A stretch of DNA of 64,000 nucleotides, from positions 163 to 64,162 of the forward strand of contig JALWPO010000154.1 in NCBI GenBank assembly GCA_026994965.1, read 5' to 3'. Below the pieces are notes generated by a model. That model did not search any database. It saw nothing but the letters and a program-made list of their open reading frames with translations, and was not told the origin of the DNA. Position numbers and translations under genes: made by a program. Of the stretch, positions 1 through 16,827 are shown piece after piece. The DNA is from Mariprofundaceae bacterium (lineage in GTDB: Bacteria > Pseudomonadota > Zetaproteobacteria > Mariprofundales > Mariprofundaceae). Within the stretch, counting starts at the first letter, position 1. Every line of letters begins with the position of its first letter.

Positions 1-38
1 GCCTCTACACCATAATGAACAACCATATCAGGACTCAT
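1..38 (-). CDS. possible 5' end of fliQ, truncated by the left window edge (12 codons visible)
   Basis: Reverse complement of 1-38 reads ATG AGT CCT GAT ATG GTT GTT CAT TAT GGT GTA GAG GC, giving MSPDMVVHYGVEA. This resembles FliQ N-termini (E. coli FliQ starts MTPESVMMMGTEA, from memory). There is no clear Shine-Dalgarno and the stretch is too short to be certain. Confidence 0.25.
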   Translation of the reverse strand, partial: MSPDMVVHYGVE

Positions 39-653
39 ATTAAAGATATGAGCAATATGTGTACCAAGTTTAAAAGTTTATTTTATATGATAAATAACAC
101 CGCAAACAGTGTTTCGCAGATACTTGCTTTGTGATTTATATCACACCTCAAAATTATCATTTGTATTACTATGCGCGCCTTGGGGGCAATCATGCTTAAA
201 CATAATTCAAAGAACCGATACCGCCAAGCGGGGTTTGGTTGGAAGGTTTATATGGGTATGTTTGTCATTTGCCTTATCATTGCCTTTCTTATGGCATAAT
301 TCATCTAAGCCTTTACCTTGAGATGTAAAACTTCTAATTACCCACCATCAAGTTACTTTTGATACAATCAACCTTGTAAAAAGTTCATCTCGCAACCCGA
401 ATTCAATATCACACTATTTCTTATGCATCGTAAATAAATCTTTACTTCAACTATTCATTTTATACTAATATAACTTTGAAATGCCAAATACAAACACGTA
501 ACTTGTGATTATCCATAAGGCTATATATAAAGTCATACAGCATCTCATACTGAACAATCCTATTTTAATTTATATATTGGTACATAACTTGCTTTTATTT
601 TTTTCATATATCACACAATGATATATAAACGGCATCAAATAGAGGTTGAGATA

Positions 654-1976
654 ATGGATAATAATCAAACAAACCAAGAAGTTTTAACACTTTTCAAAGA
701 GCTTTCTTCAGGTAATTTTTGCCATCGTGCCAATGGCGATGATGATATCATCAAACAAGCCAATGCCTTTGCCGCTAATATGGAAGCCCGTATGTTGGAA
801 CAGTTAGATGATATGGTGGGCATGACTATGGATGCCTTTGAAACCACCATGACTATGGGGCATTTGGAACAGGATATTGGAGTATTAGATGATAGAGCTA
901 TGGCCATGGCAAGTGCAAGCGAGCAAATGAGCGCCAATGTATCCCATGTCGCAGAGCGGATTGAACAAGTTAATAGCAGTATCATTAATGCCAATCAGCA
1001 AAGCACTGATGCGACAGATGCTGTTGCCCATGCTGTGGATGCTATGAGTAATATTAATCACCAGGTTGAGCAAGCTGGTGAACGCGTAGAGGCACTCACA
1101 CAAGCTTCACACGAAATTGATAGCATACTTGCTGTGATAAAAAAAATATCAGACCAAACCAATCTGCTCGCTCTTAATGCAACGATTGAAGCAGCTAGGG
1201 CAGGTGAAGTGGGTAAAGGTTTTGCCGTGGTTGCCCATGAAGTCAAAGAATTATCCCAACAGACTAAACAAGCTACAGAAAATATTGTAGAAAAGATTCA
1301 TCGTATTCAACAAGATGTGTCAGGTATTGCTGAGTCCACAGATGGTATCACTCAGGCTGTGGAACAAGGCAAACAAAATATGGATGATTTAAATGGTCGT
1401 GTAAGTGAAATATCTACTGCTTTGGATAATATTACTACTGAAGTGGATCAAATTACCGAAGCCACCAATGACCAATCTGATGCTTCTCAAGAAGTGGCAT
1501 CTTCTGTGGCAGAAACCGCTACGATGGTCGCCAATGCAAGGCATGTGGTAGACCAAACATTAAAAGATACCGATGCTATGGAAAATAAACTGGTATCTGA
1601 AATCCAAGAATTTGCTGAAATGACACTTCAAGATGCCATCTTACGTTTGGCGAAATCAGACCATGTATTATGGAAAAAACGCCTTATCAATATGATTCTT
1701 GATCGTGGTGATATTGAACTCTCCACAGTTGCCAGCCATCATGATTGCAGGCTTGGTAAATGGTACGATTCGTTGGGTCAAGATGTGTATGGTCATAGCG
1801 AAAACTTCAAAAAATTAGCCATTCCTCATGAACAGGTTCATTCACTTGGTCGCCGTGCTGTTGAACGTTATAATAATGGCGATAAAGAAGGTGCAATTGC
1901 TGATGTAGAGGCTATTGGTCCATTATCTGAAGAAGTGGTAAATCTATTGGAAGCTTTAATCGCAGAATCTAGATAA
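654..1976 (+). CDS. soluble methyl-accepting chemotaxis protein with C-terminal CZB (chemoreceptor zinc-binding) domain
   Basis: MCP signalling hairpin is present ([43 protein letters not shown]). No TM segment. The C-terminus carries the CZB pattern H..W..(x)..C.LGKWY...PHEQVH. ATG at 654 is preferred over 618 because GAGG lies 8 nt upstream. Confidence 0.9.
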
Positions 1977-1977
1977 C

Positions 1978-3369
1978 TTAATCCTTCTGTTTCATTTGGC
2001 TACTACAGTGTAGTGCAGCTATTTTATAACATTCTGCAAGTGTTGGGTAATTAAAAACATTGCGAATCAAATCGTCAATCGTGCCATTGAGATTCATTAC
2101 CATTTGTCCAATATGAACCAACTCACTGGCAGATTCACCCACAATATGTACACCCAATAATTGGCGGCTATCTTTTTCAACCAAAAGCTTTAATAGTCCG
2201 TTAGAATCACCAATAATTTGACCACGTGCAGTTTCGCGATAATAACCAAATCCTGTGACATAAGCTTTACCTTGCTGCTCAAGCTCCACCGATGTTTGCC
2301 CCACCCATGCAACTTCTGGAATAGTATAAATAGCCATAGGAAGATGACTTGAAATAATCTTTTCATCTTCATTGCATGCGTGTAGCGCTGCAATACGCCC
2401 TTGCTCCATACCAGTCGCCGCCAAAGCTGGCGAACCAATCAAATCACCAACCGCATAAATATGGGGAATGTTGGTTTGAAAATATTCATTGGTCTGAATC
2501 CAGCCACGCGTATGGCAATCAATCCCCAACATATCTAGCCCTAAACCATCTGTGTTGGGAATACGCCCCAGTGCATAAAGCAAACAATCACTTTTAATTG
2601 CGCCACTTTCACTATCAAGAATCACCTTATTTCCTTGCCGAGTGATGGATTGAATCTGTGTATTCATCTGGAACTCAATACCCATATGCAGCATACTTTT
2701 TTCAAGATTTCTAGAAATATCATTGCATAAGAAGCTTAGAATTTTTGCATGCGAATCAACCATGATGACTTCAACGCCCAGTGACGCATAAATCGTCGCA
2801 AATTCACAGGCAATCACGCCACCACCCACAATAGTGAGCTGCTTAGGAAGCTCTTGCATATGTAAGATAGAGGTAGAATCCAACACGCGTTCTTTATCAA
2901 AAGGTATCTCGTTAGGGCGACGTGGTCGAGAGCCTGTAGCTAAAATAAATTTATCTGCACATAATCTTTGTTCATCACCACGCGGCGTTTTAATACACAA
3001 GGTGTGGGCATCTATAAAGCCCGCCTCACCAGGAATTAAGGCAACCCCATTACGTAACAGTTGACTTAAAAATACAGATTCTTGTTTATCAATAACGACA
3101 TCTTTTTGACGCACCGATTCGGATAAAAAATTATGCTGCCGTATTATATCTGGATGTACATTGCGCATACCATGGCTTGCTCCCATCGTGGCACTATAAG
3201 CTATTTCACGCAGTGCTTTGCTTGGAATGGTGCCTGTTTGTAATCCTGCACCACCAATACGGGCTTTACGCTCAATAAGACCCACGCGTTTACCTCGTTT
3301 GGCAGCTTGAATGGCAGCTCTATGCCCTGCGGGACCTGAACCAATCACCAGAATATCATAGTCAGGCAT
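1978..3369 (-). CDS. SthA-like FAD/NAD(P) pyridine nucleotide-disulfide oxidoreductase family flavoprotein lacking the redox-active disulfide
   Basis: GSGPAG FAD fold and a second Rossmann motif GGGVIACEFA. The segment GGAGLQTGTIPSKALRE parallels E. coli SthA GGGCTHWGTIPSKALRH but has no Cys. The C-terminus NYPTLAECYKIAAL is SthA-like. Start at 3369 has AAGGAG 5 nt upstream, and that Shine-Dalgarno overlaps the stop of the upstream gene. Confidence 0.85.
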   Translation of the reverse strand: MPDYDILVIGSGPAGHRAAIQAAKRGKRVGLIERKARIGGAGLQTGTIPSKALREIAYSATMGASHGMRNVHPDIIRQHNFLSESVRQKDVVIDKQESVFLSQLLRNGVALIPGEAGFIDAHTLCIKTPRGDEQRLCADKFILATGSRPRRPNEIPFDKERVLDSTSILHMQELPKQLTIVGGGVIACEFATIYASLGVEVIMVDSHAKILSFLCNDISRNLEKSMLHMGIEFQMNTQIQSITRQGNKVILDSESGAIKSDCLLYALGRIPNTDGLGLDMLGIDCHTRGWIQTNEYFQTNIPHIYAVGDLIGSPALAATGMEQGRIAALHACNEDEKIISSHLPMAIYTIPEVAWVGQTSVELEQQGKAYVTGFGYYRETARGQIIGDSNGLLKLLVEKDSRQLLGVHIVGESASELVHIGQMVMNLNGTIDDLIRNVFNYPTLAECYKIAALHCSSQMKQKD

Positions 3370-3379
3370 ATGCACTCCT

Positions 3380-3889
3380 TTATGTTGCATTCAAGAGCGC
3401 AAGGATGGCTTGAATAAGATCAGTGGGGGTAGGAGGGCAACCATGCACCACAGCATCCACAGGAATAATATCAGCAACACTACCCGCAATGGCATAATTA
3501 TCTTTGCCAAACACACCACAGTTAGCTGCGCAATCACCCATGGCAAGCACAAGTTTGGGTGAAGGCATGGCATCATAAGTCATCTCTAAGGCTGTTTTCA
3601 TATTGATACTCACTGGACCTGTCACCAACAGCATATCGGCAAAGCGAGGGCTGGCTGTAAAATGCACGCCAAAGCGCTCAATATCATAATAAGCATTGTT
3701 CGCAGCGTGAATTTCAAGTTCACAACCATTGCAAGAGCCAGCATCAACAAGGCGAATGGCAAGCGAGCCTTGAAAATGTTTGCGAATCGCATCCTTTAAT
3801 TCAGCACCCATGACTTCAAAAGCCTCACTGCTTTTTAATGGCTCAGTAATACTACCGATTTTACTGATTTGCTGTAAGATTCTTAACAT
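3380..3889 (-). CDS. NuoB/HyfI/HycG-like small subunit (one [4Fe-4S] cluster) of a group-4-hydrogenase-related complex
   Basis: All four cluster cysteines are present: GSCNGCELEI, GDCAANCGVFG, HGCPPTP. The 169-aa size is typical of HycG/EchC/NuoB. Confidence 0.9.
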   Translation of the reverse strand: MLRILQQISKIGSITEPLKSSEAFEVMGAELKDAIRKHFQGSLAIRLVDAGSCNGCELEIHAANNAYYDIERFGVHFTASPRFADMLLVTGPVSINMKTALEMTYDAMPSPKLVLAMGDCAANCGVFGKDNYAIAGSVADIIPVDAVVHGCPPTPTDLIQAILALLNAT

Positions 3890-3898
3890 ATCAGCACC

Positions 3899-5503
3899 TC
3901 ACACATCATGACCCGAATACGAGCAGTTAAACGATTTGTTCACCAATGGAAAATCAGGCACAGGCACTGTGCGCACAGCCAATTCTAAACCCAACCAATT
4001 GATGACTGATGGATCACGTACAAAATATCGATCGATTAAACCATCTGTACCAAAGCGTACCCAAGCAGCAATTTCTCCACGCCAAGATTCGATTGCCGCA
4101 AAGCCAGACACACCAGCTTCTGGAGCAACCCAATCTGTTTGGATACTTCCCTTTGGGAGGTTTTCAAGCATCTGAATAATCATGCGAGAGGAGCTCGCAA
4201 TTTCTTCAAATCGAACCCACACACGTGTAGAGACACCACCTTGTTCACCTTTTGGAATAGCAATATCGAGTTCATCATAAGGAGCGTAAGCCTCTTCAAT
4301 ACGTTCATCAGCTTCATGCCCTGAAGCCCGACCAACATACCCAAGCAGCCCAATATCTTTGGCATCATCCACACCCACAATACCCGCACCAATCACCCGT
4401 TGTTGAATCGATGCGGTATCCGCATAAATAGCTCTAAGATGCTCAACCTCTACAGCAATATCACGGGTTTGCTGTATAAGTTTCTGGCATGCTTCCTCGC
4501 TTACATCATGTGCAACACCGCCCAAGGTCAAAGTATTCATCAACAATCTGTGCCCAAAAACATCATGGTGTAAACGCGCCATATCTTCACGTAAGCGTGA
4601 GCATTGCACATGCATAAATGCAAATGCTGCATCATTGCAAATCGCCCCAATATCACCAATATGATTGGCAATACGTTCGCGCTCACACAAGATGCCACGA
4701 ATATAATCACAGCGTTTGGAAGTCATAACGTCCGCAGCATATTCGCAGGCTTGTGCAAATGCCCAGCTATGCCCCACGCTCGTATCCCCTGAAATGTGAC
4801 CTGCCAGCATCAATCCATCTGAAGCTGTCCGCCCTTGCATGCTTTTTTCAATACCTTTATGCACATAACCCAAGCGCTCTTCCATATTAAGGATTTTCTC
4901 ACCTACGGCTAAAAAACGAAAATGCCCAGGTTCAATAATCCCTGCATGCACAGGTCCTACTGGAATTTCATACACCGATTCACTCTCACAAGACACATAA
5001 TCATAATCCACCTGGGCTCGCCCCGCATCAGGCTGCATGGGTGAATGCCCATCAAAATCATCCAACAAAGGATGCGCATCTGCCTTCCAGTGTTCATGCT
5101 TAATCCACGGACGTGTATCAGGCATATCTTTTATGCTAATACCAAACATATCCTGCATATGCCGCTCCATACGGTACGCAGCGATATAGTGCTCACTAAT
5201 CGTAAGCACCTCGGGATTATCTTCTTGTAGCGGTGTACGCAGCAACACATGCCTATGCTCTGGATGAGCAAATGCCATATAGCTATACAATGTCTTCGCG
5301 TCATCATGCCTACCTGCCAAAGCTGCCCACACAGCCACAAAGCGCATCTCCAATCGTTTGGCTTCCTCAGCTGCATCCGCCCAATCCAAACGGCGAATTT
5401 CTAAACATGGCATATGGGCAGGATGATGATCTTCAAGGTATTGCGAATGAATACCATGATCACCCAAACGTTCGGCGAACCAAGTATTGCTTAATGCGGT
5501 CAT
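3899..5503 (-). CDS. NuoC-NuoD fusion / HycE-HyfG-like large subunit lacking most NiFe-ligand cysteines
   Basis: GPVHAGIIEPGHFRF, LGYVHKGIEK and RGILCERERIANHIGDIG are typical of group 4 large subunits. The N-terminal 150 aa are NuoC-like. The ligand motifs are degenerate (see findings). ATG at 5503 overlaps the upstream stop as ATGA. Confidence 0.9.
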   Translation of the reverse strand: MTALSNTWFAERLGDHGIHSQYLEDHHPAHMPCLEIRRLDWADAAEEAKRLEMRFVAVWAALAGRHDDAKTLYSYMAFAHPEHRHVLLRTPLQEDNPEVLTISEHYIAAYRMERHMQDMFGISIKDMPDTRPWIKHEHWKADAHPLLDDFDGHSPMQPDAGRAQVDYDYVSCESESVYEIPVGPVHAGIIEPGHFRFLAVGEKILNMEERLGYVHKGIEKSMQGRTASDGLMLAGHISGDTSVGHSWAFAQACEYAADVMTSKRCDYIRGILCERERIANHIGDIGAICNDAAFAFMHVQCSRLREDMARLHHDVFGHRLLMNTLTLGGVAHDVSEEACQKLIQQTRDIAVEVEHLRAIYADTASIQQRVIGAGIVGVDDAKDIGLLGYVGRASGHEADERIEEAYAPYDELDIAIPKGEQGGVSTRVWVRFEEIASSSRMIIQMLENLPKGSIQTDWVAPEAGVSGFAAIESWRGEIAAWVRFGTDGLIDRYFVRDPSVINWLGLELAVRTVPVPDFPLVNKSFNCSYSGHDV

Positions 5504-6963
5504 GCCCCGCCCCCAACAATCAATGCAGCCGCTTGATGATACCACTGGGATAGAAACATAGGGATGGATAAACCCAAAATCAGCGCCAAACCAAAATGAA
5601 TATATACTGGCATCATATTCACATGCACATGCTTGGCGTGTTCTGCTGTATCACCATATACCATGGGTTGCACAAATCGAAACAAGCCACCCATAGCAAT
5701 CAATAGACCCAATAATAAGGGCACAGCAAGCCAAGGATAGGATTCCAGTGTGGCGGTAAAAAGTAAAAACTCACTCATAAATACGCCAAAGGGTGGAAAG
5801 CCTGCAATCGCAGCTGTGCCAATCAATAAACCCCAGCCAATCCCTGGATGATGAGAAATCAAACCGCGAATCTCTGCCATTTTTTGTGTGCCCATCACTT
5901 GTGCTGCATGCCCAACGGTAAAAAATATGCCTGATTTTACCAATGAATGCACCGTCATGTGCAGCAATGCTGCAAAGGCGGCAAGCGGTGTTCCGATGCC
6001 AAATGCAAAGGTCATCAAGGCCATATGTTCAATGGAGGAAAAGGAAAACATACGTTTAATATCGCGCTGTTTGTGCAACGCCATCGCAGCAACAAGCAAG
6101 GATAGCAAACCAAAACCCATCATCATATGCCCTGCCATATCCGTATGGGTAGATCCATCGACCAACATTTTAAAACGCACCAAGGCATACAAAGCAAGAT
6201 TGAGCAGCAAACCTGATAATACTGCCGATACAGGTGTTGGACCTTCACCATGCGCATCAGGCAACCATGCATGCATGGGAACCAATCCCACTTTGGTGCC
6301 ATAACCCACCATTAGAAAACAAAAGGCAATGCCCATCACCGCTGGGTCTAACTGACCCGCATGTGCATAAAGCAATGACCATGTGAGTGCTTCATTACCA
6401 TGTCCAAGTATGGTTGAGGAAGTGAAAAATACCAAAATGGTTCCAAAGAGGGCAAGCGCAATCCCCATGCCGCATAAAATAAAATATTTCCATGCCGCAG
6501 CAATCGATGCGGGCGTGCGATACAACGAAACCAATAAGACCGTAGCAAGGGTTGCCAATTCCAATGACACCCAAAGCACACCAATATTATTGGTGGTAAA
6601 GCCGAGCAACATACCCAATTGAAAAAGTTGATACATGCTGTGATACAAGCGCAGGCGCTTTTCGTTAACGCGACCAATCTCAAGCTCATGCTGCATATAA
6701 GGCTTAGAAAAGATGGTCGTGGTCATACCTACAAAAGCCGTTAAAGAAACTAGGAAAACATTATAGGCATCCAAATAAAACCAACCATTGAATGTTGCGA
6801 GTGATGCCTGCCCTAACACTTGCAAAGCCAGCAAAATACTGAATGTAAAAGTCGTGACGGAAGTTAGGATATTGAGTTTTGCCGCAAGTTTTGGATTACG
6901 GAGTACGCCCAAGACCATGCCTCCGAGCAAGGGTGTTAATAATGTCGCAATAAAAAAGTTCAT
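5500..6963 (-). CDS. antiporter-like membrane subunit (HyfF/NuoN/Mrp-type, Proton_antipo_M family)
   Basis: 487 aa and polytopic. Motifs include WLPDAHGEGPTPVSAVLSG and SSIEHMALM..HSLVKSGIFF, characteristic of NuoL/M/N-HyfBDF proteins. Confidence 0.85.
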   Translation of the reverse strand: MNFFIATLLTPLLGGMVLGVLRNPKLAAKLNILTSVTTFTFSILLALQVLGQASLATFNGWFYLDAYNVFLVSLTAFVGMTTTIFSKPYMQHELEIGRVNEKRLRLYHSMYQLFQLGMLLGFTTNNIGVLWVSLELATLATVLLVSLYRTPASIAAAWKYFILCGMGIALALFGTILVFFTSSTILGHGNEALTWSLLYAHAGQLDPAVMGIAFCFLMVGYGTKVGLVPMHAWLPDAHGEGPTPVSAVLSGLLLNLALYALVRFKMLVDGSTHTDMAGHMMMGFGLLSLLVAAMALHKQRDIKRMFSFSSIEHMALMTFAFGIGTPLAAFAALLHMTVHSLVKSGIFFTVGHAAQVMGTQKMAEIRGLISHHPGIGWGLLIGTAAIAGFPPFGVFMSEFLLFTATLESYPWLAVPLLLGLLIAMGGLFRFVQPMVYGDTAEHAKHVHVNMMPVYIHFGLALILGLSIPMFLSQWYHQAAALIVGGGA

Positions 6964-7643
6964 TCGTCATCATCCTTTTGGATTAAGGATGATTGCATGG
7001 TATCAATTTCCATGGAATCAAATGTATTACGAATTTGAAAGAAAAATAACCCAAAAATCAGCGCCGCAATCAGCACATCAAAAGCAATCCCTATTTCAAC
7101 CACCAATGGCATTCCATTGGTCGCGCCAATGGCTGCGAAGAACAAGGAATTTTCCACAGCAAGAAAACCAATCACTTGAGTAATCGCTTTTTTACGGGTA
7201 ATCATCATCAACATACTGAGCAACACGCAAGCTGTGGCAATCGCCATAGAATTACGTGTCAATAATTCCGATGTAACCTCAATCGGCTGAATAATATGAA
7301 ATGAAAATAATGTAACAGCCACTGCAATCACCATGGTTATACCGCTGTTCATCAGTGGCTCAACTTCACGATGCACATGAAGCTTACGAATCACTCGCCA
7401 TAGCATCCAAGGTAGCAATAAGCCTTTAAGTAAAAACGTCATCATCGCAGAAATATAAAGCTCAGTTTCGCCTGTACTATAGGCCACCACAGCCGCTGTT
7501 GCTGCCAAGAGCAACCCCTGCCCTGCAAACCAACGTAAAACAGAAAGCATACGATGTTGTGCAAGAAGAGAAAATGAAATAAGTAAGGTTAAAGCTGCCA
7601 TGCCATCGATAATTTGTTGGGCAAACTGTTGAGAAAAAGTCAT
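6960..7643 (-). CDS. HyfE-like small polytopic membrane subunit (NuoK/J-related)
   Basis: About 227 aa and hydrophobic, with a GFLAVENSLFFAA motif as in HyfE. It sits between the HyfC-like and HyfF-like genes. The track start at 7697 is a TTG, so the ATG at 7643 is preferred. Confidence 0.7.
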   Translation of the reverse strand: MTFSQQFAQQIIDGMAALTLLISFSLLAQHRMLSVLRWFAGQGLLLAATAAVVAYSTGETELYISAMMTFLLKGLLLPWMLWRVIRKLHVHREVEPLMNSGITMVIAVAVTLFSFHIIQPIEVTSELLTRNSMAIATACVLLSMLMMITRKKAITQVIGFLAVENSLFFAAIGATNGMPLVVEIGIAFDVLIAALIFGLFFFQIRNTFDSMEIDTMQSSLIQKDDDE

Positions 7644-7791
7644 GCCCAGAGACCTCTGCACCGCAGTGATTTTTTGAGCGAACCAAGGCAAAAACAATCC
7701 TGAAACCGCAGTTTGCTGTTTGCAAATGAGGATTGAAGGGCTGTTTTTAACGCAGATGCAGCCAAAAAGGCGCGCGATGCTGAGATCTCGC

Positions 7792-8739
7792 TCATACAGC
7801 CACCTCCAGCATGTAGTGAATAATTAATCCCAAAAAAGCGAGCACAAAAGCAGCACCTAAATACTGTGGTACTTCAAACATTCGCAACTTCGCCATGGAT
7901 GTTTCCATCACTGCCAAAATCACAAACAACACCATTAACTTGGCAATCCATATCATCAAAGCCAATGCAATGGTCACTAAACTTGCATCACCACTGATGC
8001 CCCATGGAAAAAATAAATCGATGATGAGCGTAGCAAATAATAATAATTTTACCGCTGATGCCCATTCCATCAGGGCTAAATGTCGCCCTGAATACTCCAG
8101 CAACATGGCTTCATGAATCATGGTAAGTTCCAAGTGTGTGCTAGGGTTATCAATGGGAATACGCCCTGTTTCTACAATAGCAATCATCAACATCGCAACC
8201 AAAGCAAAAGCAATCGAAGGTTGAATCAATAATGGGGTATGCAGTGTATGCGCAATCATGGTTGTGAGATTGGTGCTGTGCGCGCCAATCGCCAATACAA
8301 ATATACTCATCAACATAGCAGGTTCAGCCAATGCGGAAAAAGTCATTTCCCGGCTTGCGCCCATGCCACCAAAGGCAGTGCCAATATCCATGCCTGCCAG
8401 TGATAAGAAAAAACGCCCCAAGGCTAACAGTGCAACCAAGGCAATCACATCTGCCGTCAAGGATAGAGGTGTATCCAGTAATAATGATGGGACTACGCTT
8501 GCCGCCATCACCGTTGCCGTAAATACTACATAAGGCGCAAACCGAAAAATCCATGATGCATGATCTGCCAGCACTACTTCTTTATTGAATAATTTTTGTA
8601 TATCACGCCATGGTTGCATGATGCCTGCGCCACGTCTGTTTTGCAGACGCGCTTTGACGGTGCTGACAAACCCTAGCACTAATGGTGCGAACATCACCAT
8701 CAGCACAGCTTGCAAAAGTTGGAAAAAAATAGAACTCAT
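7792..8739 (-). CDS. HyfC/HycD/NuoH-like membrane subunit
   Basis: The N-terminus LLQAVLMVMFAPLVLGFVSTVKARLQNRRGAGIMQPWRDIQKLFNKE is the HycD/HyfC signature. 315 aa, polytopic. Confidence 0.85.
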   Translation of the reverse strand: MSSIFFQLLQAVLMVMFAPLVLGFVSTVKARLQNRRGAGIMQPWRDIQKLFNKEVVLADHASWIFRFAPYVVFTATVMAASVVPSLLLDTPLSLTADVIALVALLALGRFFLSLAGMDIGTAFGGMGASREMTFSALAEPAMLMSIFVLAIGAHSTNLTTMIAHTLHTPLLIQPSIAFALVAMLMIAIVETGRIPIDNPSTHLELTMIHEAMLLEYSGRHLALMEWASAVKLLLFATLIIDLFFPWGISGDASLVTIALALMIWIAKLMVLFVILAVMETSMAKLRMFEVPQYLGAAFVLAFLGLIIHYMLEVAV

Positions 8740-10757
8740 GCGAATACCGCCAAAAGAAAGAGCACTGTTGCAAAGGTGTATGCCAAATAAGCATGAATAC
8801 CGCGTTGATGCTCATGGCGAATGATTTTGGCAAGCCAAAGCGTGGCATGACCAATCGGTTGATAGACCTGCTTCACCACCATATCACTGACATGTACAAT
8901 ATATTTTACACGCGTGGTGAGTAATGCATGCTTATGGCGCTCTGCATGTTCGTGTTCTTCTGGTTGATATAAATCCACAAAAATACGTCGCAAAGGTTGA
9001 GAAAAACTAGCAGCATTGTATTGCATACGCGCGTGGGTATGTGGATTGCCACAACTCCACATTTTACTGCGTCGAATATGATTGCCTTTGGGGTGTAGCC
9101 ACCAAAATGCTAAGCCACCAAGCAATAACATACCTATCAGTGCTAAAGGCGCTGAATAAGAAGCGCGCTCTGCATCCATGGGCGTAAGCCAAACCCAACT
9201 ATGATTATGCAACGATGATAGCATGGATGTGTGCAACAATGCCTGCGGCACATGATCCAATAAAGGTATGAACAACGTGGGAAGAAGCCCAAGCAATAAA
9301 CAACATACTGCGGGTATCACCATGCCGAATTTCATCCACATATCGACTTCTTTAGCATCTGCTACAGCCTCGCTACGTGCATGACCCAAGAAAACCACAC
9401 CAAAGACTTTGACAAAACAAGTTGCCGCTAATGCCCCTGCCAATGCCAACATCGCAGCAGAGAAAGGAACCATGGCAGTAAGCAGTGCGCCTCCCAATTG
9501 CGGAGCCATCAATGCAGTTTGAAAGGTTAACCACTCAGAGACAAATCCATTGAACGGTGGCAATGCCGAAATGGAAATACACGCTACAAGGAACAAGCCC
9601 GATGTCCACGGCATACGATGAATCAAACCACCCATTTTTTCCATATTGCGTGTGCCTGTTTTATGCAGCACTGCACCAGCACCCATAAATAATAGCCCTT
9701 TAAACAGCGCATGATTGATGGTGTGATACAAGGCTGCAATCAAACCCAATGCTGCCAGTGTTGGGTGATTAAAATGTGCGAGCAACATACCCAAGCCCAA
9801 GCCAATCAAAATAATACCAATATTCTCAATGGAGTGATAAGCCAGCAAACGTTTTAAATCATGTTGTTGTAATGCCATGAGTACGCCAGATACCGCAGAG
9901 CTGGAACCAGCCGCCAATACCAATGCGCCCCACCACCATTGAAAATCACCACTACCCATCAAATCCCAAGTGATACGAATAAAACCAAAGATTGCGACCT
10001 TCAACATAATACCACTCATCAATGCCGATACATTCGATGGTGCAACAGGATGCGCATCAGGCAACCAGCCATGCATGGGAACCACGCCAGCCTTGGTACC
10101 AAAACCAAAACCTGCCAATAAAAATGCCACCGATGCCCATAATGGTGAGATAGAAGCTTCACGCATGGCAGAAAATTCAAACGAGCCCGATACAGCATAG
10201 AGCGTAGCAAAACTTCCCATAATCAATAGCCCTGCCATATGTGCCATCAGTAAATAAATAAAGCCTGCTTTGCGATTTTCAGGGTATTGATGTTCGTGTG
10301 TCACAAGAAAATAAGAGGATACGCTCATCAATTCCCAATATAACATAAAGGTAAACGCATCATCGGATAACACCACGCCCATCATGCCCAACACAAATAA
10401 GGGCAAGAAAATCGCTAGCGGTGTGAGTTTCTTTTCATGGCTTAAATAACCATAGCTATAAATAGAAACAGGCAATGTTAATGAACCAATCACCAATAAA
10501 AAGAATGAACCCAAAGCATCCAAACGCAGGTGCATGGGTAACCATGGTAATCCTAAAGGTAGAGTGATACTACCCCCACCTGAAATAAGCCCTGTAAAAC
10601 CAGCCACGACTGCAAGCAAACCACTGATGGCCAACAAAGCACTCAAAGCAATACGTTGAATCGTGGGATTACTTTGTAAACAAGGGGCTGCAACCGCAGC
10701 GATGACCATAGATAAGCACGCCCCAAGCGCCATATGTAATGAAAGCACAGCCATCAT
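8736..10757 (-). CDS. HyfB/HycC/NuoL-like antiporter-like membrane subunit
   Basis: 673 aa. Motifs include WLPDAHPVAPSNVSALMSGIMLK and AYHSIENIGIILIGLG..NHALFKGLLFMGAG. It overlaps the downstream gene by 4 nt. Confidence 0.85.
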   Translation of the reverse strand: MMAVLSLHMALGACLSMVIAAVAAPCLQSNPTIQRIALSALLAISGLLAVVAGFTGLISGGGSITLPLGLPWLPMHLRLDALGSFFLLVIGSLTLPVSIYSYGYLSHEKKLTPLAIFLPLFVLGMMGVVLSDDAFTFMLYWELMSVSSYFLVTHEHQYPENRKAGFIYLLMAHMAGLLIMGSFATLYAVSGSFEFSAMREASISPLWASVAFLLAGFGFGTKAGVVPMHGWLPDAHPVAPSNVSALMSGIMLKVAIFGFIRITWDLMGSGDFQWWWGALVLAAGSSSAVSGVLMALQQHDLKRLLAYHSIENIGIILIGLGLGMLLAHFNHPTLAALGLIAALYHTINHALFKGLLFMGAGAVLHKTGTRNMEKMGGLIHRMPWTSGLFLVACISISALPPFNGFVSEWLTFQTALMAPQLGGALLTAMVPFSAAMLALAGALAATCFVKVFGVVFLGHARSEAVADAKEVDMWMKFGMVIPAVCCLLLGLLPTLFIPLLDHVPQALLHTSMLSSLHNHSWVWLTPMDAERASYSAPLALIGMLLLGGLAFWWLHPKGNHIRRSKMWSCGNPHTHARMQYNAASFSQPLRRIFVDLYQPEEHEHAERHKHALLTTRVKYIVHVSDMVVKQVYQPIGHATLWLAKIIRHEHQRGIHAYLAYTFATVLFLLAVFA

Positions 10758-11308
10758 CGAGAGCGAACCATTAACAATTCACATGGCTTATCGGATCGAT
10801 TGTGCCAGTTATGTTGCTTGCGTGCATCATAATAAAGCGATTGCATTTCATGCAGTGGATATTCGCGCCCATCATATGCCAACACCACATCACCACGCCG
10901 CACCCACACAAAAGCATGTGCGCTTTTAATACCATATTGATTTTCTTCAAAGCTTCCGCCTGCATCCAGTTGTACCAACATGGGCTCAAAACCAATGGGT
11001 TGATGCAATGCGGTTAAAGGAATGAAGCGACCACCTTGACTCAGTGGAACCGTAGGACGGTCATTTAAATCAAAGATTTCAATATCGCTTTGCTCGCCTG
11101 TTTCAAGAAAAAAAGCAGCTACGGCAATACCAAGCCCATCCGCAAGCTTTTCCAAGGTTGCAACCGAAGGCGAAGCTCTGCCCGATTCCAGTTGCGATAA
11201 AGCAGCCGCACTGATACCAGCTTGTTCCGCCAACATCCGTTGTGAAAGCGATTGTTGTTCACGAAGCGTTTTAATCGTAAGGGCGATGTTTTTCATAGGG
11301 CGGTGCAT
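10754..11308 (-). CDS. XRE-family HTH plus cupin domain transcriptional regulator
   Basis: The N-terminal HTH_3 reads LREQQSLSQRMLAEQAGISAAALSQLESGRASPSVATLEKLADGLG. The C-terminal roughly 100 aa look like a cupin beta-barrel (PuuR-like architecture). The stop overlaps the start of the HyfB-like gene by 4 nt. The true start may be the ATG at 11296. Confidence 0.85.
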   Translation of the reverse strand: MHRPMKNIALTIKTLREQQSLSQRMLAEQAGISAAALSQLESGRASPSVATLEKLADGLGIAVAAFFLETGEQSDIEIFDLNDRPTVPLSQGGRFIPLTALHQPIGFEPMLVQLDAGGSFEENQYGIKSAHAFVWVRRGDVVLAYDGREYPLHEMQSLYYDARKQHNWHNRSDKPCELLMVRSR

Positions 11309-11446
11309 TATTCATAATAATGGTCATATGTAAATATTATTTAACATTCTGTGGACTTTAGCACTACGGCGTTTTTTACATGAGGACTAAAAGAAGCAAT
11401 TTTAACATAGATATAGCCAAAAAGGTGAGTGGTGCAGAAGTCTCTA

Positions 11447-12184
11447 CTATTTAAAACTTTGCAATAAAGATGCTGTAAGCAAATGCCAACCATCCACCAA
11501 CACGAATAAAATAATTTTTAGGGGTAACGAAATCATCACTGGTGGTAACATCATCATGCCCATACTCATCAATACTGAAGCTACTACTAAATCCAATACC
11601 ACAAAGGGAATATAAATAAGAAAACCAATTTCAAAAGCCGTTCTCAGCTCACTAATAATAAATGATGGAATCAGCACATGCATGGGTGTTGCACTAGCAG
11701 TGGCTGGTTTTTCCATATGTGCAGCATCCAAAAATAATAATAAATCATCATTTCTTGTCTGCCGCAGCATAAAAGCTTGAATCGGTGCTTTAGCTTTTTC
11801 AAATGCCTCTGCCTGCGATATGTTTTCAGCCAAATAAGGCGTGATTGCCTCAGCATCGATTTTATCCCATACAGGCATCATGATAAACACACTCATGAAC
11901 AATGCTAACCCAATCAAAACTTGGGTTGGTGGGCTTTGCTGTGTACCTAGAGCCTGACGTAAAAAGGCAAATACAATCACAATCCGTGTAAATGATGTCA
12001 TCATCACAAGTGCCGATGGTGCAAGTGTGAGTATGGTTAACAATGCTAAAATTTTTAGTCCTGTAAACCAATCATCTGGATTGTTTCCATCCCCTAAATG
12101 AATGGATAAGGTGGGAATATCTGCCGACCAAGCTGTATGTGGCAATATCAACACCAAGAAGATTAAAAGTAGCTTAACTTTCAT
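11447..12184 (-). CDS. fliP: flagellar export gate protein FliP
   Basis: Signal peptide MKVKLLLIFLVLILPHTAWSA, then the FliP core LTILTLAPSALVMMTSFTRIVIVFAFLRQALGTQQSPPTQVLIGLALFMSVFIMMPV. Confidence 0.95.
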   Translation of the reverse strand: MKVKLLLIFLVLILPHTAWSADIPTLSIHLGDGNNPDDWFTGLKILALLTILTLAPSALVMMTSFTRIVIVFAFLRQALGTQQSPPTQVLIGLALFMSVFIMMPVWDKIDAEAITPYLAENISQAEAFEKAKAPIQAFMLRQTRNDDLLLFLDAAHMEKPATASATPMHVLIPSFIISELRTAFEIGFLIYIPFVVLDLVVASVLMSMGMMMLPPVMISLPLKIILFVLVDGWHLLTASLLQSFK

Positions 12185-12476
12185 GATGTAACTCATTAGC
12201 TTGTTCATCGTTTTCTGAACGCTCAATCGTATCAATCACCTGCAACCCATCAGTAGATAATCCTAAAAGATAGCAACGTTTACCATGCCGAACTTCCACT
12301 ACGCTATGACGCGTATCCAAGCTGACTTTTTGCAATACTTTGATATTGGATGTCGAAGGAGAACCCATACGATATTGCAATCGTTTCATACCCCAAACCA
12401 ACAAGGCAAACAATGCCAATACCACTGCTAATGCAGCAATCGATTGAAGCATCATCATGGCTAAACCTTGTTCCAT
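12174..12476 (-). CDS. fliO: flagellar biosynthesis protein FliO
   Basis: 100 aa with a single TM (IAALAVVLALFALLVWGMKRL) followed by VLQKVSLDTRHSVVEVRHGKRCYLLGLS. It lies between fliN and fliP. Confidence 0.8.
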   Translation of the reverse strand: MEQGLAMMMLQSIAALAVVLALFALLVWGMKRLQYRMGSPSTSNIKVLQKVSLDTRHSVVEVRHGKRCYLLGLSTDGLQVIDTIERSENDEQANELHHES

Positions 12477-12480
12477 TGAC

Positions 12481-12798
12481 TTAACCTAAGCTTCGGATGC
12501 GCTCACCCGATGGCACAATATCAACAATTCGAATACCTAACTTTCCATCGGATGATACCACTTCACCACGTGCAAACACCTGCCCATTCGCCAAAATATC
12601 CACTTCTGCATTGGCTTCTTTTTTTAAATCCACAACTGTGCCACGGTGCAAACGTGCTACATGGTGCAGGGGCAGCTCAACACGCCCCAATTCAACACTT
12701 ACCGACAGCGGCACATGCATAATGGCTTCCAAATTGGGTCGTGGAACATCCTGATTAATATGATTATCTGTTGTCACTTCTTCTGGGCTATCACTCAT
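12481..12798 (-). CDS. fliN: flagellar motor switch protein FliN
   Basis: SpoA domain VPLSVSVELGRVELPLHHVARLHRGTVVDLKKEANAEVDILANGQVFARGEVVSSDGKLGIRIVDIV. Confidence 0.9.
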   Translation of the reverse strand: MSDSPEEVTTDNHINQDVPRPNLEAIMHVPLSVSVELGRVELPLHHVARLHRGTVVDLKKEANAEVDILANGQVFARGEVVSSDGKLGIRIVDIVPSGERIRSLG

Positions 12799-13820
12799 GA
12801 TATACCTCCCTGTATGGCATCGGTTAGCTCTGCTGCCAACATACCCTCTTGACTACCTGCTTGCGCCTGAAACATGGGCATAGCATCAATCCATAATGTT
12901 GCAGGATCTGTATCGCCGACCTTAAATGGTAAATAATCACCTTGTGATAACGCTAGAAATTCACCAATCTCCATCGAACATTGCCCCAACTCCAAACGCA
13001 TCGTAATCGGAACCTCACTTAATGCATGTTCCAATTGTGCCTGCCACATCTCATCCACAGCCACTGGCTCATCACTCATGGTAGAGCGCAAACTATCCAA
13101 CATCGGCTCCAAAAATGTGCGTGGATAATGCAAAGCAAATGTGCCTTTGACATCTTCATCCAGTTGAATTTCAAAATACATAGAAAAACAGGCATCTTGA
13201 GCACCTGCCACAGCAAGAAACTGTGAGTCTGTCTCCAATTTGAACAACACAAAATCCAAAACCGTGACGGGTTTCCATGTATTTTCAAGATGCATTTCAA
13301 GGCTTTTTGCAATCCGCTCAGCCAAACGATTTTCCACCGGTGATAACGCCTGTATAGATTCATCATATACCTCACCACTACCACCCAACATGGCATCCAC
13401 ATGTGCTACAATTAGCGGCAAATCAAAAGCCAACATCATGCGCCCATAGCCTTCCACTGAATAAGCAAAAAATACGCGGTGCTCTTCTGCACTAATCACA
13501 TCACGGTATGTGTTTTCTGTCATACTTTGAAAACTCACCCCAATATCACGCTGAAAAGTATCCTCCCACTGCTCTTTAAGCGCTTCTGCCATACGCTCCT
13601 GAAGATTTACAAACAATGGATAGCGCCCAGGCCCTTCACTATCATCCTGATCAAAAGTAAAAGCTTCCACTGCTTCAGGCTCTTGGATAGGCGGCAATGA
13701 TGAAAATAATGCGTCAATCGTTTCATCTGAACCAACATTTGCCATCAAAGCCTCAATTTCTTCAGGCTCCAATACAGGTTTTTTATCTTCTGCAACTGCT
13801 GCTTCAACTGTTTCTGTCAT
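12795..13820 (-). CDS. fliM: flagellar motor switch protein FliM
   Basis: 341 aa, acidic N-terminus, central FliM domain and C-terminal SpoA-like part (PITMRLELGQCSMEIGEFLALSQGDYLPF). Position fliL-fliM-fliN. Confidence 0.9.
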   Translation of the reverse strand: MTETVEAAVAEDKKPVLEPEEIEALMANVGSDETIDALFSSLPPIQEPEAVEAFTFDQDDSEGPGRYPLFVNLQERMAEALKEQWEDTFQRDIGVSFQSMTENTYRDVISAEEHRVFFAYSVEGYGRMMLAFDLPLIVAHVDAMLGGSGEVYDESIQALSPVENRLAERIAKSLEMHLENTWKPVTVLDFVLFKLETDSQFLAVAGAQDACFSMYFEIQLDEDVKGTFALHYPRTFLEPMLDSLRSTMSDEPVAVDEMWQAQLEHALSEVPITMRLELGQCSMEIGEFLALSQGDYLPFKVGDTDPATLWIDAMPMFQAQAGSQEGMLAAELTDAIQGGIS

Positions 13821-14338
13821 TGCGACACAAAGTCCGTAAAATATAATTTTTTCACAGGCTTACCTGGAAATATTTTATTCAACCTAAATATCAATTCTTC
13901 TTTCAATGCATACTTACCCCTAGGCGTACGTATATCTTCAAAAGTTTTGCTCGATAAAATAGTTAAGATTAAATCATTGATTTTGGCTTTGCCTGCATCT
14001 GTATCAAGCTTTGCAAGCGCCTCTTCTGAGCGCAACTCAAGCTTAATTTTTGCGCGTAAGAAACGACTCACATCAGCATCTGCCAAGTTAATCGTGATAT
14101 TATCCACATCCATCAATACAGGTGGTTTATCACTTTCTTCATCAACCTCTGGTATTTTTGTTTCTGCTGTTTCTGTAGGTGCTTTATCCGTAGCTACACC
14201 CGATTGTTCCATCTGCATCATTTTCCATGCAACAAAACCACCGACTGCCAAAACAAGAACCAATAAAACCATATTGATGATAGGTAATATACCACCTCCA
14301 CCCGATGATTTAGCTTCTTTTTCTGCGTCATCTGCCAT
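13817..14338 (-). CDS. fliL: flagellar basal body-associated protein FliL
   Basis: Single N-terminal TM, then ITINLADADVSRFLRAKIKLELRS...INDLILTILSSKTFEDI...KKLYFTDFVSQ, a typical FliL. Confidence 0.8.
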   Translation of the reverse strand: MADDAEKEAKSSGGGGILPIINMVLLVLVLAVGGFVAWKMMQMEQSGVATDKAPTETAETKIPEVDEESDKPPVLMDVDNITINLADADVSRFLRAKIKLELRSEEALAKLDTDAGKAKINDLILTILSSKTFEDIRTPRGKYALKEELIFRLNKIFPGKPVKKLYFTDFVSQ

Positions 14339-14369
14339 ATGTATGCTCCTTCATATCAAACATCCTTAA

Positions 14370-15071
14370 CTATTTATAAACAACAATTTCCACGCGACGG
14401 TTCCGACTTCGTCCAAACGGTGTAGCATCAGTGGATACAGGTCTTGATGGTCCATACCCAGCCAATGACAAACGTGCAGGATTTACACCTTCTTCTTCCA
14501 AGATACGCAAGACTGATGCCGAACGTGCCAAAGTAAGACTCCATGGATCAGTATACTTACTCCCTGCGCGCGGTTTAAATTGTGTGTCTGAATGCCCATT
14601 CACACTGATTTTACCCGGTGACATCGCCAACATGCGCGCTAAACGCCGCAATGCCTTTATGTTTTCTTCTTTAAGCTCCGCTGAACCTTCATCAAACATC
14701 ACTGCATCCTTGATACGAAGATAAAGCTTATCTTTTACAATAATTGCATTGACTTTATGTTCCAATACACTATTTTTAAGTACCACATGACTATTCTGGC
14801 GCATCGCCAACATCAACTCGCGCGGTGTCACTTTAAGCTGCAACTGTGATGGTGGGATAATATTAAGCTCTGTACGTTCACCTGCATTCATCACCGATAC
14901 AGCTTTTTGAAAATATGTGGAAATATCCTGTAACCCTGTTTTATCCAATGTGGACATAGAAACCAACAAGATAAAGAATGTAAGCATAAGGCTCACTAAA
15001 TCGGCAAAAGTAGTCATCCATGCTTCAGGGTCTGGTTTATATACGACCGGCCATTTCTTCTTTCTTGCCAT
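14370..15071 (-). CDS. motB: flagellar stator protein MotB/PomB (canonical Asp in the TM plug)
   Basis: WMTTFADLVSLMLTFFILLVS resembles Vibrio PomB WMGTFADLMSLLMCFFVLLLS. The C-terminal OmpA-like domain reads NGHSD...WSLTLARSASV...NRRVEIVVY. Confidence 0.85.
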   Translation of the reverse strand: MARKKKWPVVYKPDPEAWMTTFADLVSLMLTFFILLVSMSTLDKTGLQDISTYFQKAVSVMNAGERTELNIIPPSQLQLKVTPRELMLAMRQNSHVVLKNSVLEHKVNAIIVKDKLYLRIKDAVMFDEGSAELKEENIKALRRLARMLAMSPGKISVNGHSDTQFKPRAGSKYTDPWSLTLARSASVLRILEEEGVNPARLSLAGYGPSRPVSTDATPFGRSRNRRVEIVVYK

Positions 15072-15072
15072 A

Positions 15073-15846
15073 TCAGAATCCCATCTTTGGTTCACTCACC
15101 GCTGCCCGATGCGGTGGCGATAAACTCATTTTTTTCGATTGTTCTGAGTGTTCCGTCACTGGGCGGAATTTCAGTATAATTTCTACACGGCGACTCAACT
15201 CTGGATGATTGGGAATCGGATGTTTATCCCCCATACCTGCTACCACCATACGACCATTAGCAACACCTCGCTCCGATAATGCATGAAATACAGACATCGC
15301 TCGCGCAGCAGAAAGCTCCCAATTGGAGATATAAATAGAACCTCGAACAGGGGTATCATCGGTATGACCTTCAATGCGAACCTCAATCACTTCAGGACGA
15401 GTAAAAATAACAGCCAACTTATCCATCAACTTCATACTGCTTGGCAATAAATCAACATGACCAGGTGCAAATGAAATATGCTCTGGAAAGCGTACACGCA
15501 CAGAGTCTTGATCCAAAGCAATCGCATACATGCCATGAATACCTAAATCCTTAGCCACATCCGTCAATGCTTTGGCGGTTCGTTTGGGTGCTTTTGAACC
15601 ATCCACAATATCACGTGAAGGCATAGCAGGACCTTTGCCTTGACTTAAATTTGCCCCTTTGGGTAAAGGACTAAATGTGCCTGCTAATGAACCCAATGCA
15701 GCCAAACGTTTTTCTTCTACAATCACTGCCATGGAGGTAAGTAAAATAAAAAATGCCAACATCTGCATCATCAACTCAAGAAATAAGGCTGCGCCAATAT
15801 CTTTAGGTCGATCAATGGGAGCTGGTTTTTTCTCTCGTTTAGCCAT
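15073..15846 (-). CDS. second MotB-like stator protein (OmpA/MotB domain) with Glu at the conserved Asp position
   Basis: The TM segment LFLELMMQMLAFFILLTSM aligns to E. coli MotB YADFMTAMMAFFLVMW. The C-terminal domain reads GHTDDTP...SNWELSAARAMSV...SRRVEIILK. Confidence 0.8.
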   Translation of the reverse strand: MAKREKKPAPIDRPKDIGAALFLELMMQMLAFFILLTSMAVIVEEKRLAALGSLAGTFSPLPKGANLSQGKGPAMPSRDIVDGSKAPKRTAKALTDVAKDLGIHGMYAIALDQDSVRVRFPEHISFAPGHVDLLPSSMKLMDKLAVIFTRPEVIEVRIEGHTDDTPVRGSIYISNWELSAARAMSVFHALSERGVANGRMVVAGMGDKHPIPNHPELSRRVEIILKFRPVTEHSEQSKKMSLSPPHRAAVSEPKMGF

Positions 15847-15883
15847 AATTTATCAGCTGATTACCAAGTAGTCTTGACACATA

Positions 15884-16642: not shown

Positions 16643-16717
16643 ACTTTCCTCCTAACCAAGAACCCTTTTATCTCAAAAGAAATTTGACTCAAATCATTCA
16701 TGACATATCTTATATGG

Positions 16718-16747
16718 GTTATCTAGCAAGAAGCGTGCAACTTTTAA
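16718..16747 (-). promoter_or_regulatory. candidate promoter upstream of motA (sigma-28-like and sigma-54-like near matches overlap)
   Basis: The minus strand reads TTAAAAGTTGCACGCTTCTTGCTAGATAACCC. TAAA-N16-CTAGATAA compares with the FliA consensus TAAA-N15-GCCGATAA. TTGCAC-N5-TTGCT compares with the RpoN consensus TGGCAC-N5-TTGCW, with one G of the GG missing. Confidence 0.3.
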
Positions 16748-16777
16748 TCTTATTAAGAAAAATACTTTACACAAAGC

Positions 16778-16806
16778 AAAACACCCGCACATAGGCGGGT
16801 GTTTTA
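16778..16806 (-). terminator. Rho-independent terminator after flgE
   Basis: A perfect 8-bp stem (ACACCCGC / GCGGGTGT) with a 6-nt loop lies 26 nt past the flgE stop. On the minus strand it is followed by TTTGCTTTGTG. Confidence 0.6.
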
Positions 16807-16827
16807 TGGATACGTCAATAACTCAAT

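Follow-up and report, generated by a model that had tools for sequence, protein, structure and literature searches.

Which genes make up the hydrogenase-related membrane complex encoded in a 64-kb stretch of DNA from a Mariprofundaceae bacterium (contig JALWPO010000154.1, positions 163 to 64,162; hereafter the window), and does the flavoprotein gene that follows them belong to it? According to the list of open reading frames (ORFs), the minus strand of the window carries a run of eight ORFs at 1978–11308. They encode an XRE-cupin regulator, the six subunits of an Ehr-type (Ech- or energy-converting-hydrogenase-related) complex and a SthA-type flavoprotein. The name Ehr was given to the complex of Geobacter sulfurreducens GSU0739-0745, and Marreiros et al. 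2013 surveyed the group; Ehr complexes have been described since 2005 and 2013, and their six-subunit make-up is already known. The initial annotation treated the regulator, the complex and the flavoprotein as one module, with the flavoprotein possibly taking the place of NuoEFG. The reading preferred here, with a probability of about 0.6, combines a self-contained and self-regulated Ehr cassette, sthA as its passenger and a mechanistic sketch of the complex. The conserved unit consists of a putative promoter/operator, the XRE-cupin regulator and the six Ehr genes; this cassette is autonomous and under purifying selection.

The genes were annotated by Pfam and NCBIfam profile searches, and every gene assignment was confirmed by both libraries. 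The features of the locus are as follows.

1978..3369, minus strand: sthA, SthA-type soluble pyridine nucleotide transhydrogenase, 463 amino acids (aa); NCBIfam NF003585; the ORF extends to 3390, and the real ATG is at 3369
3380..3889, minus strand: NuoB/HyfI-like small subunit (EhrS-like), 169 aa; Pfam Oxidored_q6, 7e-30
3899..5503, minus strand: NuoCD/HyfG-like large subunit (EhrL-like), 534 aa, without NiFe ligands; Complex1_30kDa and Complex1_49kDa
5500..6963, minus strand: HyfF/NuoN-like antiporter-type membrane subunit (EhrD-like), 487 aa; Proton_antipo_M and NCBIfam NF005045
6960..7643, minus strand: HyfE-like small membrane subunit (EhrC-like), 227 aa, ATG at 7643; NCBIfam NF008556
7643..7795, minus strand: hyfC–hyfE spacer of about 150 nt, a lineage-specific insertion recognised by comparison with relatives
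7792..8739, minus strand: HyfC/NuoH-like membrane subunit (EhrB-like), 315 aa; Pfam NADHdh, 7e-40
8736..10757, minus strand: HyfB/NuoL-like antiporter-type membrane subunit (EhrA-like), 673 aa; Proton_antipo_M, 1.6e-53
10754..11296, minus strand: xre-cupin regulator (ORF to 11308); Pfam HTH_3, 5e-16, and Cupin_2, 4e-10
11307..11345, minus strand: putative promoter/operator; promoter-like match and conserved position

The conserved cassette

All of the closest genome matches to the large subunit come from Zetaproteobacteria, including Mariprofundus ferrooxydans PV-1 and M. erugo P3. The nearest genome set comprised 41 species-level zetaproteobacterial (Mariprofundaceae) loci, with large subunits 62–80% identical to that of the window. 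The order of the six structural genes is constant in all zetaproteobacterial loci, and the XRE-cupin gene precedes hyfB in every one of the 24 loci that reach the hyfB 5′ end. This gene also lies upstream of hyfB in loci L042, L045 and L133, and all seven genes recur, at about 54% identity, in a Nitrospinota metagenome-assembled genome (MAG) and one further relative. A family-profile scan of metagenome contigs added 80 loci with 37–65% identity, all with the hyfB-C-E-F-G-I order. The Ehr loci compared number 126 in total. The order is conserved in all of them, and the cupin regulator is not part of the unit in the distant loci.

The limits of the cassette can be read from its presence and absence in close relatives. 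In L001 and L006 the order is parA (minus strand), xre-ehr, sthA and rnfABCDGE. In L048 and L132 it is parA (minus strand), sthA and rnfABCDGE with no Ehr genes, and the SthA proteins encoded there are 81% and 85% identical to that of the window. Nucleotide homology between L048 and L006 extends to just past the parA start and is found again from the sthA ATG; the 7.9-kb block of L006 corresponds to about 125 nt in L048 (L001/L006 4220–12148 versus L048 8833–9001). The regulator and the six Ehr genes come and go as one block, and sthA stays with rnf.

The gene spacing argues for co-translation, in line with the one translationally coupled unit that the initial annotation had claimed; its ORF positions, overlaps and gaps were all borne out by the ORF coordinates and by direct reading. 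The coordinates place 4-nt ATGA overlaps at 10754–10757, 8736–8739, 6960–6963 and 5500–5503. As read directly, the large and small subunit genes are separated by 9 nt (TGA GGTGCTGAT ATG), and the nuoB-like gene and sthA by 10 nt (TAA AGGAGTGCAT ATG), with the Shine–Dalgarno sequence AAGGAG overlapping the nuoB stop. Against their NCBIfam profiles, the hyfB-like product scores 783 bits (NF005086, 'hydrogenase 4 subunit B'; cut-off 667) and the hyfF-like product 700 bits (NF005045, 'hydrogenase 4 subunit F'; cut-off 543). The hyfE-like product matches NF008556 ('hydrogenase 4 membrane subunit') at 1.4e-25, which is under the family cut-off; the start that gives it 227 aa is the same as that annotated on the identical ENA contig, L047.

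A putative sigma-70-type promoter, GTTAAATAAT-A-TTTACA-N16-AATAAT, precedes the regulator gene, with the -35 element at 11334–11329 and the -10 element at 11312–11307 on the minus strand. It scores highest (10/12) among the promoter-like matches in the region and is flanked by operator-like AATAAT/ATTATT inverted repeats. Most of the 24 zetaproteobacterial loci have this element at the corresponding place ahead of xre; farther upstream, the sequence is unrelated. In generic terminator and promoter scans of 1500–11700, the counts equalled those of shuffled controls, and only the promoter upstream of xre stood out. Its sequence and conserved position suggest that 11307–11345 acts as a promoter/operator.

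The initial annotation placed the regulator at 10754–11308. The extent of the ORF was correct, but its first ATG, at 11308, falls within the conserved -10 hexamer; because of this overlap, the most likely start is the second ATG, at 11296, giving a protein of 180 aa and a near-leaderless mRNA. The length of 180 aa matches the annotation in relatives. With HTH_3 and Cupin_2 (Pfam), the regulator has the domain architecture of PuuR; it scores 66.9 bits against the PuuR equivalog NF007408, which has a cut-off of 211, and shares this architecture but is not a PuuR orthologue. The operon would be autoregulated, with the regulator repressing its own promoter until a ligand binds its cupin domain.

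Small same-strand ORFs of 80–115 aa occur just upstream of hyfB in six distant loci (L066, L071, L117, L119, L120 and L126). Three flanking ORFs of distant loci match Pfam HTH_3, which is also the most recurrent upstream Pfam family there (three loci), and two small ORFs weakly match the regulator of the window. An XRE-type regulator without a cupin domain may, to judge from these matches, be a wider companion of Ehr.

Two further loci show Ehr clusters in other settings. In L044, which shows about 55% identity, the six Ehr genes are present and the XRE-cupin gene is missing; the region ahead of the cluster (4142–4940) contains a tRNA gene and some 600 nt without coding sequence, and the region behind it (12453–13512) contains transposase genes. 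This setting is consistent with horizontal movement of the cluster. In L031, a zetaproteobacterial MAG, a second, divergent hyfB-C-E-F-like cluster, 26–40% identical, lies immediately downstream of the Ehr cassette (12318–16890); the contig ends ahead of its large subunit.

The complex and its possible function

The large subunit matches E. coli HycE (7z0s_E) at 2.4e-52 (phmmer) and MbhL (6cfw_L) at 1.5e-29. In the alignment with HycE, S, T, S and G stand in place of the four NiFe cysteines: RvCGiC becomes HiSGDT, and DPCYSC becomes NCSYSG. The motif DPSVINW was considered as L2 and rejected, as the HycE alignment puts the true L2 at the C-terminal NCSYSG. Since the large subunit terminates at the position of the L2 motif, it has no cleavable extension for a protease. 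The quinone head-group ligands of complex I are gone as well; in the alignment to Thermus Nqo4 (2fug_4), Tyr87 is replaced by Gly and His38 by Ile. The hydrogenase-type proton-path motif GPVHAGIIEPGHFRF is retained.

The replacements recur throughout the family. Nearly all of 120 near relatives end in KSFNCSY(S/A)G(N/H)D(L/V), and their L1 motif is (R/H)(I/V)SGDxx. An exhaustive search of 1.84 billion cluster representatives returned 5753 relatives of the large subunit, including 757 at E <= 1e-30 (clusters defined at 50% identity). The best 150 representatives include 116 of the x-G-D / SY(S/A)G type, 21 true CxxC hydrogenases, nine other non-Cys proteins and four fragments. The Ehr-type C-terminal motif is present in 79 of the 80 metagenome loci, and Gly239, Asp240, Tyr529, Gly531 and Asp533 are invariant in an alignment of 40 sequences with 30–44% identity. 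Because the replacement motifs are conserved across the Ehr family, they are not the outcome of decay. The HycE alignment and the family-wide motifs agree with the earlier assignment to group-4-hydrogenase-related complexes without NiFe ligands, and by these marks the complex belongs to the Ehr class. In the C-terminus of the large subunit (3899–3931) a lone Cys immediately precedes the lost first L2 ligand (FNCSYSG). Almost all Zetaproteobacteria share this residue, as do about half of the 80 distant loci; the others have Leu, Gln or Gly at this position.

The small subunit keeps four Cys residues for one [4Fe-4S] cluster: CNGCE, GDC and GCPP align with MbhJ, HycG and NuoB. It has, as aligned, the ligands required for the N2-type cluster of NuoB, and cluster binding is predicted. 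In the membrane arm, the HyfF-like motifs SLELATL, GTKVGLVPMH, HSLVKSG and FMSEF keep their charged residues in an alignment to MbhH, MbsH and MrpD; we take these residues to be the Glu of transmembrane helix (TM) 5, the Lys of TM7, the Lys of TM8 and the Glu of TM12.

The partners that feed electrons into related complexes are missing. The CxxCxxCxxxC motif does not occur in window ORFs of at least 50 aa, and a Pfam scan of the 49 largest other ORFs of the window found no hyp, formate dehydrogenase, HycI or NuoI-like gene; it covered the gene at 618–1976 and the genes at 11447–63525, apart from two short ORFs (93 and 100 aa). Within the 64 kb neither NuoEFG modules nor rnf genes are encoded. 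The initial annotation had noted the lack of ferredoxin-type, hyp, formate dehydrogenase and HycI genes in the window, and both scans confirm it. Across the 126 Ehr loci, ferredoxin-type ORFs are limited to RnfB/RnfC in L001 and L006 and two unrelated ORFs. As no ferredoxin-type ORF goes with the cluster in these loci, the absence of a NuoI/HycF-like subunit is a property of the whole Ehr family, not of this window.

The mechanistic sketch that completes the preferred reading, with Ehr as an ion-translocating redox module, is tentative and, taken by itself, stands at somewhat less than an even chance. Judging from its homologues, Ehr would couple ion translocation to electron transfer via the single [4Fe-4S] cluster. 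A soluble carrier of the ferredoxin or flavodoxin type would dock transiently on the surface occupied by NuoI in complex I, and electrons would move between this carrier and a substrate located either in the former NiFe pocket or at the membrane interface. In an autotroph that oxidises Fe(II), Ehr may run in the direction that consumes the proton-motive force.

A different use of the same subunits, in which Ehr is not a redox enzyme, is unlikely. Ehr would then be an Mrp-like cation/proton antiporter or another transporter, its Fe–S arm being structural or serving as a redox/oxygen sensor that gates transport. The lack of an electron-input subunit anywhere in the Ehr family would fit such a role, as would the loss of both NiFe and quinone ligands and the two Mrp/Nuo antiporter-like subunits with charged residues kept in conserved motifs. 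The flanks, too, hold no conserved redox partner: in a search of the two nearest ORFs on each side of the distant loci (47 with downstream and 24 with upstream sequence), no Pfam family occurred more than twice downstream. However, all four cluster cysteines are conserved, as is GPVHAGIIEPGHFRF, and residues of the former active site are invariant at 30–44% identity; this goes beyond what would be expected of a purely structural remnant. Furthermore, the Ehr subunits of Geobacter rise with formate as electron donor (PMC7894505).

sthA and the weaker alternatives

The flavoprotein itself is predicted to be an ordinary soluble NAD(P) transhydrogenase. It scores 539.3 bits against NF003585, the equivalog for Si-specific NAD(P)+ transhydrogenase (cut-off 465), and its match to the next family, lipoamide dehydrogenase, is under that family's own cut-off. 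Its best solved structure is the soluble transhydrogenase 9n4y (4.7e-96), an entry with 14 identical chains, to which it aligns end to end. The protein consists of Pyr_redox_2, Pyr_redox and Pyr_redox_dim domains and has no CxxxxC redox-active disulfide, the corresponding motif being GGAGLQTGTIPSK. It differs from SthA/UdhA (9n4y) at one position of the former disulfide motif, where a Cys is usually kept (GGxCTHxGTIPSK); the Gly found in its place is a trait of the whole subfamily, not of Ehr-linked copies. Both cysteines are lacking in 119 of the 120 nearest SthA homologues, and 106 have the identical GGAGLQTGTIPSK motif; Cys-less homologues include copies away from Ehr and copies from other classes. 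With 119 of the 120 sharing it, the lack of cysteines does not reflect adaptation to Ehr, and no trait sets the SthA of the window apart as specialised.

Adjacency to Ehr is rare. Of the 26 zetaproteobacterial genome loci whose sequence continues for 700 nt or more downstream, two (L001 and L006) have sthA behind the nuoB-like gene; L133, a third relative with xre-ehr-sthA, was found via the SthA search. The arrangement is confined to a small sub-clade, namely the window, L001, L006 and L133. Downstream genes vary in the other zetaproteobacterial loci and include purD-purE with cytochrome c biogenesis genes, an integrase and a penicillin-binding protein, among others. None of the 47 distant loci with downstream sequence has an SthA-like gene in this place; two of their downstream ORFs match Pyr_redox_2, only one of them similar to SthA (312 aa, 33.7 bits). 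Besides the copies next to rnf described above, further sthA orthologues, 72–77% identical, lie in unrelated contexts.

In the closest relatives a complete rnfABCDGE cluster directly follows sthA (L048 9001–15562, L132 10001–16565, L001 12133–19670 and L006 12148–18806); some 68 nt separate the two in L048, L132 and L006. The arrangement suggests that sthA and rnf form an NADPH–NADH–ferredoxin redox-balancing gene pair there. The GC content at third codon positions is 0.32 for sthA, 0.37–0.45 for the ehr genes and 0.36 +/- 0.04 for the background; in this measure and in overall GC content, the contrast between sthA and the ehr genes is mild and not decisive.

With high confidence, then, sthA is placed outside the conserved module, and it is probably a neighbour or passenger of Ehr, not a subunit. 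In the window, transcription from the Ehr promoter probably continues into sthA, which would share a transcript with the cassette; the scan of 1500–11700 found no terminator-like site at the nuoB–sthA junction. The module boundary drawn by the initial annotation, which took in the flavoprotein, has to be moved back to the last of the six Ehr genes, the linkage being unconserved in related genomes (2/26 zetaproteobacterial loci and L133; 0/47 distant loci). The gene-neighbourhood comparison that the same annotation had proposed finds a Cys-less sthA rarely behind Ehr clusters, and the idea of one flavoprotein replacing NuoEFG was not borne out, given orthologues at parA–sthA–rnf without Ehr and a Cys-less motif that is family-wide.

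That idea, in its fullest form, makes SthA the dedicated electron input: electrons would run from NAD(P)H through FAD to the NuoB-like [4Fe-4S] cluster of a minimal complex-I-like ion pump, at least in the sub-clade. Such a role is improbable. The adjacency is missing in 24 of the 26 zetaproteobacterial loci and in all 47 distant ones, orthologues 81–85% identical stand at parA–sthA–rnf without Ehr and those 72–77% identical in unrelated contexts, and essentially all of the 120 nearest homologues carry the Cys-less motif. The protein also passes the threshold of the soluble transhydrogenase equivalog, and its closest solved relative is a soluble homo-oligomer. Because the large subunit lacks the quinone ligands of complex I, the NAD(P)H:quinone version of the idea is weakened as well. 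What favours SthA as the input, beside the arrangement of the genes, is that no other electron-input subunit is encoded.

Several points weigh against the preferred reading, some of them by the same arrangement. The 10-nt gap with its good Shine–Dalgarno sequence, lying over the nuoB stop, leaves no room for a separate promoter, and sthA relies on transcription from within or upstream of Ehr. The xre-ehr-sthA adjacency holds in two flanking contexts, that of the window and that of L001, L006 and L133, and a lineage-specific functional link between sthA and Ehr may exist. As for the mechanistic part, its donor, acceptor and ion are drawn from homology, and the flanks of the 47 distant loci yield no partner by association. 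In one version of the lineage-specific link, the Ehr operon of the sub-clade would have captured sthA, which would have lost its own promoter; SthA would now be the NAD(P)H-linked input of an Ehr that uses another, unlinked donor elsewhere. If true, this would give Ehr its first assigned substrate and reveal a complex-I-type pump fed by a single flavoprotein; it is a long shot, restricted to one lineage, and offers no general answer for Ehr.

A decaying, non-functional remnant of a Hyf-type hydrogenase would explain why the NiFe ligands are all gone and the accessory genes missing from the window, and the Ehr of Geobacter is treated as non-functional in one paper (PMC13194489), but this is very improbable and contradicted by the conservation pattern, given six intact ORFs in conserved order in more than 120 loci down to 37% identity, conserved replacement motifs and a conserved putative promoter/operator, 757 clusters matching the large subunit at E <= 1e-30 with most of the best 150 being Ehr-type, and Ehr proteins detected in Geobacter proteomes (PMC7894505).

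Surroundings and known relatives

The xre-ehr-sthA block of the window sits directly downstream of fliP, inside a flagellar cluster (11447–31905). The genes fliQ and fliR, the usual successors of fliP, are not there after the fliP of the window (11309–12235), and two MotB-like genes stand side by side at 14370–15846. On the far side of the block, a convergent gene for a methyl-accepting chemotaxis protein with a CZB zinc-binding domain (618–1976) ends 1 nt away from the sthA stop. The other window content recognised by Pfam comprises the flagellar cluster, sigma-54 regulators, envelope glycosyltransferases and housekeeping genes.

An ORF of 51 codons runs through the insertion at 7643–7795, which the initial annotation did not mention; its ATG shares bases with the hyfC stop, and its TGA with the hyfE ATG. 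The insertion is missing in L001, L002, L006 and L008, whose hyfC and hyfE genes overlap directly (ATGA), and its sequence occurs nowhere else in the window or the fetched loci. Part of it resembles a degenerate duplicate of the hyfE 5′ end (FAQKITAV versus FAQQIIDG). A hairpin predicted in this spacer is not significant (z = -1.86), and an Rfam search of 1–12500 with E up to 0.1 gave no match, including in the hyfC–hyfE spacer.

Among characterised systems, the best sequence matches and the hyfB-C-E-F-G-I order point to Hyf (FHL-2) of E. coli and Pectobacterium and to formate hydrogenlyase 1 (FHL-1; 7z0s) of E. coli. Unlike these, the window lacks the NiFe cysteines, HyfA/HyfH (HycB/HycF), HyfD, a formate dehydrogenase, hyp and hycI, and its large subunit has no cleavable C-terminal extension. 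The complex does not have the features that define group 4 [NiFe]-hydrogenases: the four Cys ligands, and the 2x[4Fe-4S] subunit with a formate dehydrogenase partner. Complex I (NuoA-N) and photosynthetic NDH-1 share with it homologues of NuoB, NuoC, NuoD and NuoH, antiporter-like subunits and the N2-type ligands; NuoI and NuoEFG are missing here, and Tyr87/His38 are replaced by Gly/Ile.

The Pyrococcus furiosus MBH (6cfw) and MBS/Mbx (6u8y) are likewise group-4-type membrane complexes with Mrp-like modules, and MbhJ, MbhL, MbhH and MbsH rank among the top structure-database hits of the Ehr subunits. MBS is a precedent for a hydrogenase-derived complex with a changed substrate. Both MBH and MBS keep a NuoI-like two-cluster subunit that takes electrons from ferredoxin, whereas Ehr has no NuoI-like subunit at all.

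In Mycobacterium tuberculosis the regulator belongs to another family, Rv0081 not being an XRE-cupin protein; the operon Rv0081-Rv0087 is set apart here by description, not by sequence. It is described as an Ehr-like hyc operon whose first gene encodes a transcription regulator, and as no functional hydrogenase, the maturation genes being missing (PMC6728331). The Ehr of Geobacter resembles that of the window in its NuoL/HyfB-, HyfC-, HyfE- and HyfF-like subunits, its large subunit without NiFe cysteines, its NuoB-like small subunit and, as far as the 64 kb of the window go, the lack of maturation machinery. It is reported with two EhrA genes (compared by description, not by sequence), and the zetaproteobacterial operon differs from it also in opening with an XRE-cupin regulator behind a putative promoter/operator.

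Ehr has been reported in Nitrospira, ammonia-oxidising archaea, Geobacter and mycobacteria; literature searches found nothing specific to an Ehr-type cluster in Zetaproteobacteria. No substrate is known for Ehr, as the initial annotation stated, and the literature to 2026 still calls the function unknown. The complex of the window is an ordinary member of this widespread hydrogenase-derived family, in an iron-oxidising Zetaproteobacterium. New details are the cassette with its XRE-cupin regulator and putative promoter/operator, its presence/absence polymorphism and the family-wide lack of both a NuoI-like subunit and a conserved neighbour. They narrow the problem to an autonomous six-subunit core with no NuoI-like input, no NiFe or quinone ligands and no conserved neighbour that names its partner. 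Ehr stands between hydrogenases and complex I in evolution, and a set of residues at its former active site has stayed invariant. Since the cultured strains M. ferrooxydans PV-1 and M. erugo P3 carry Ehr, the cassette is open to testing.

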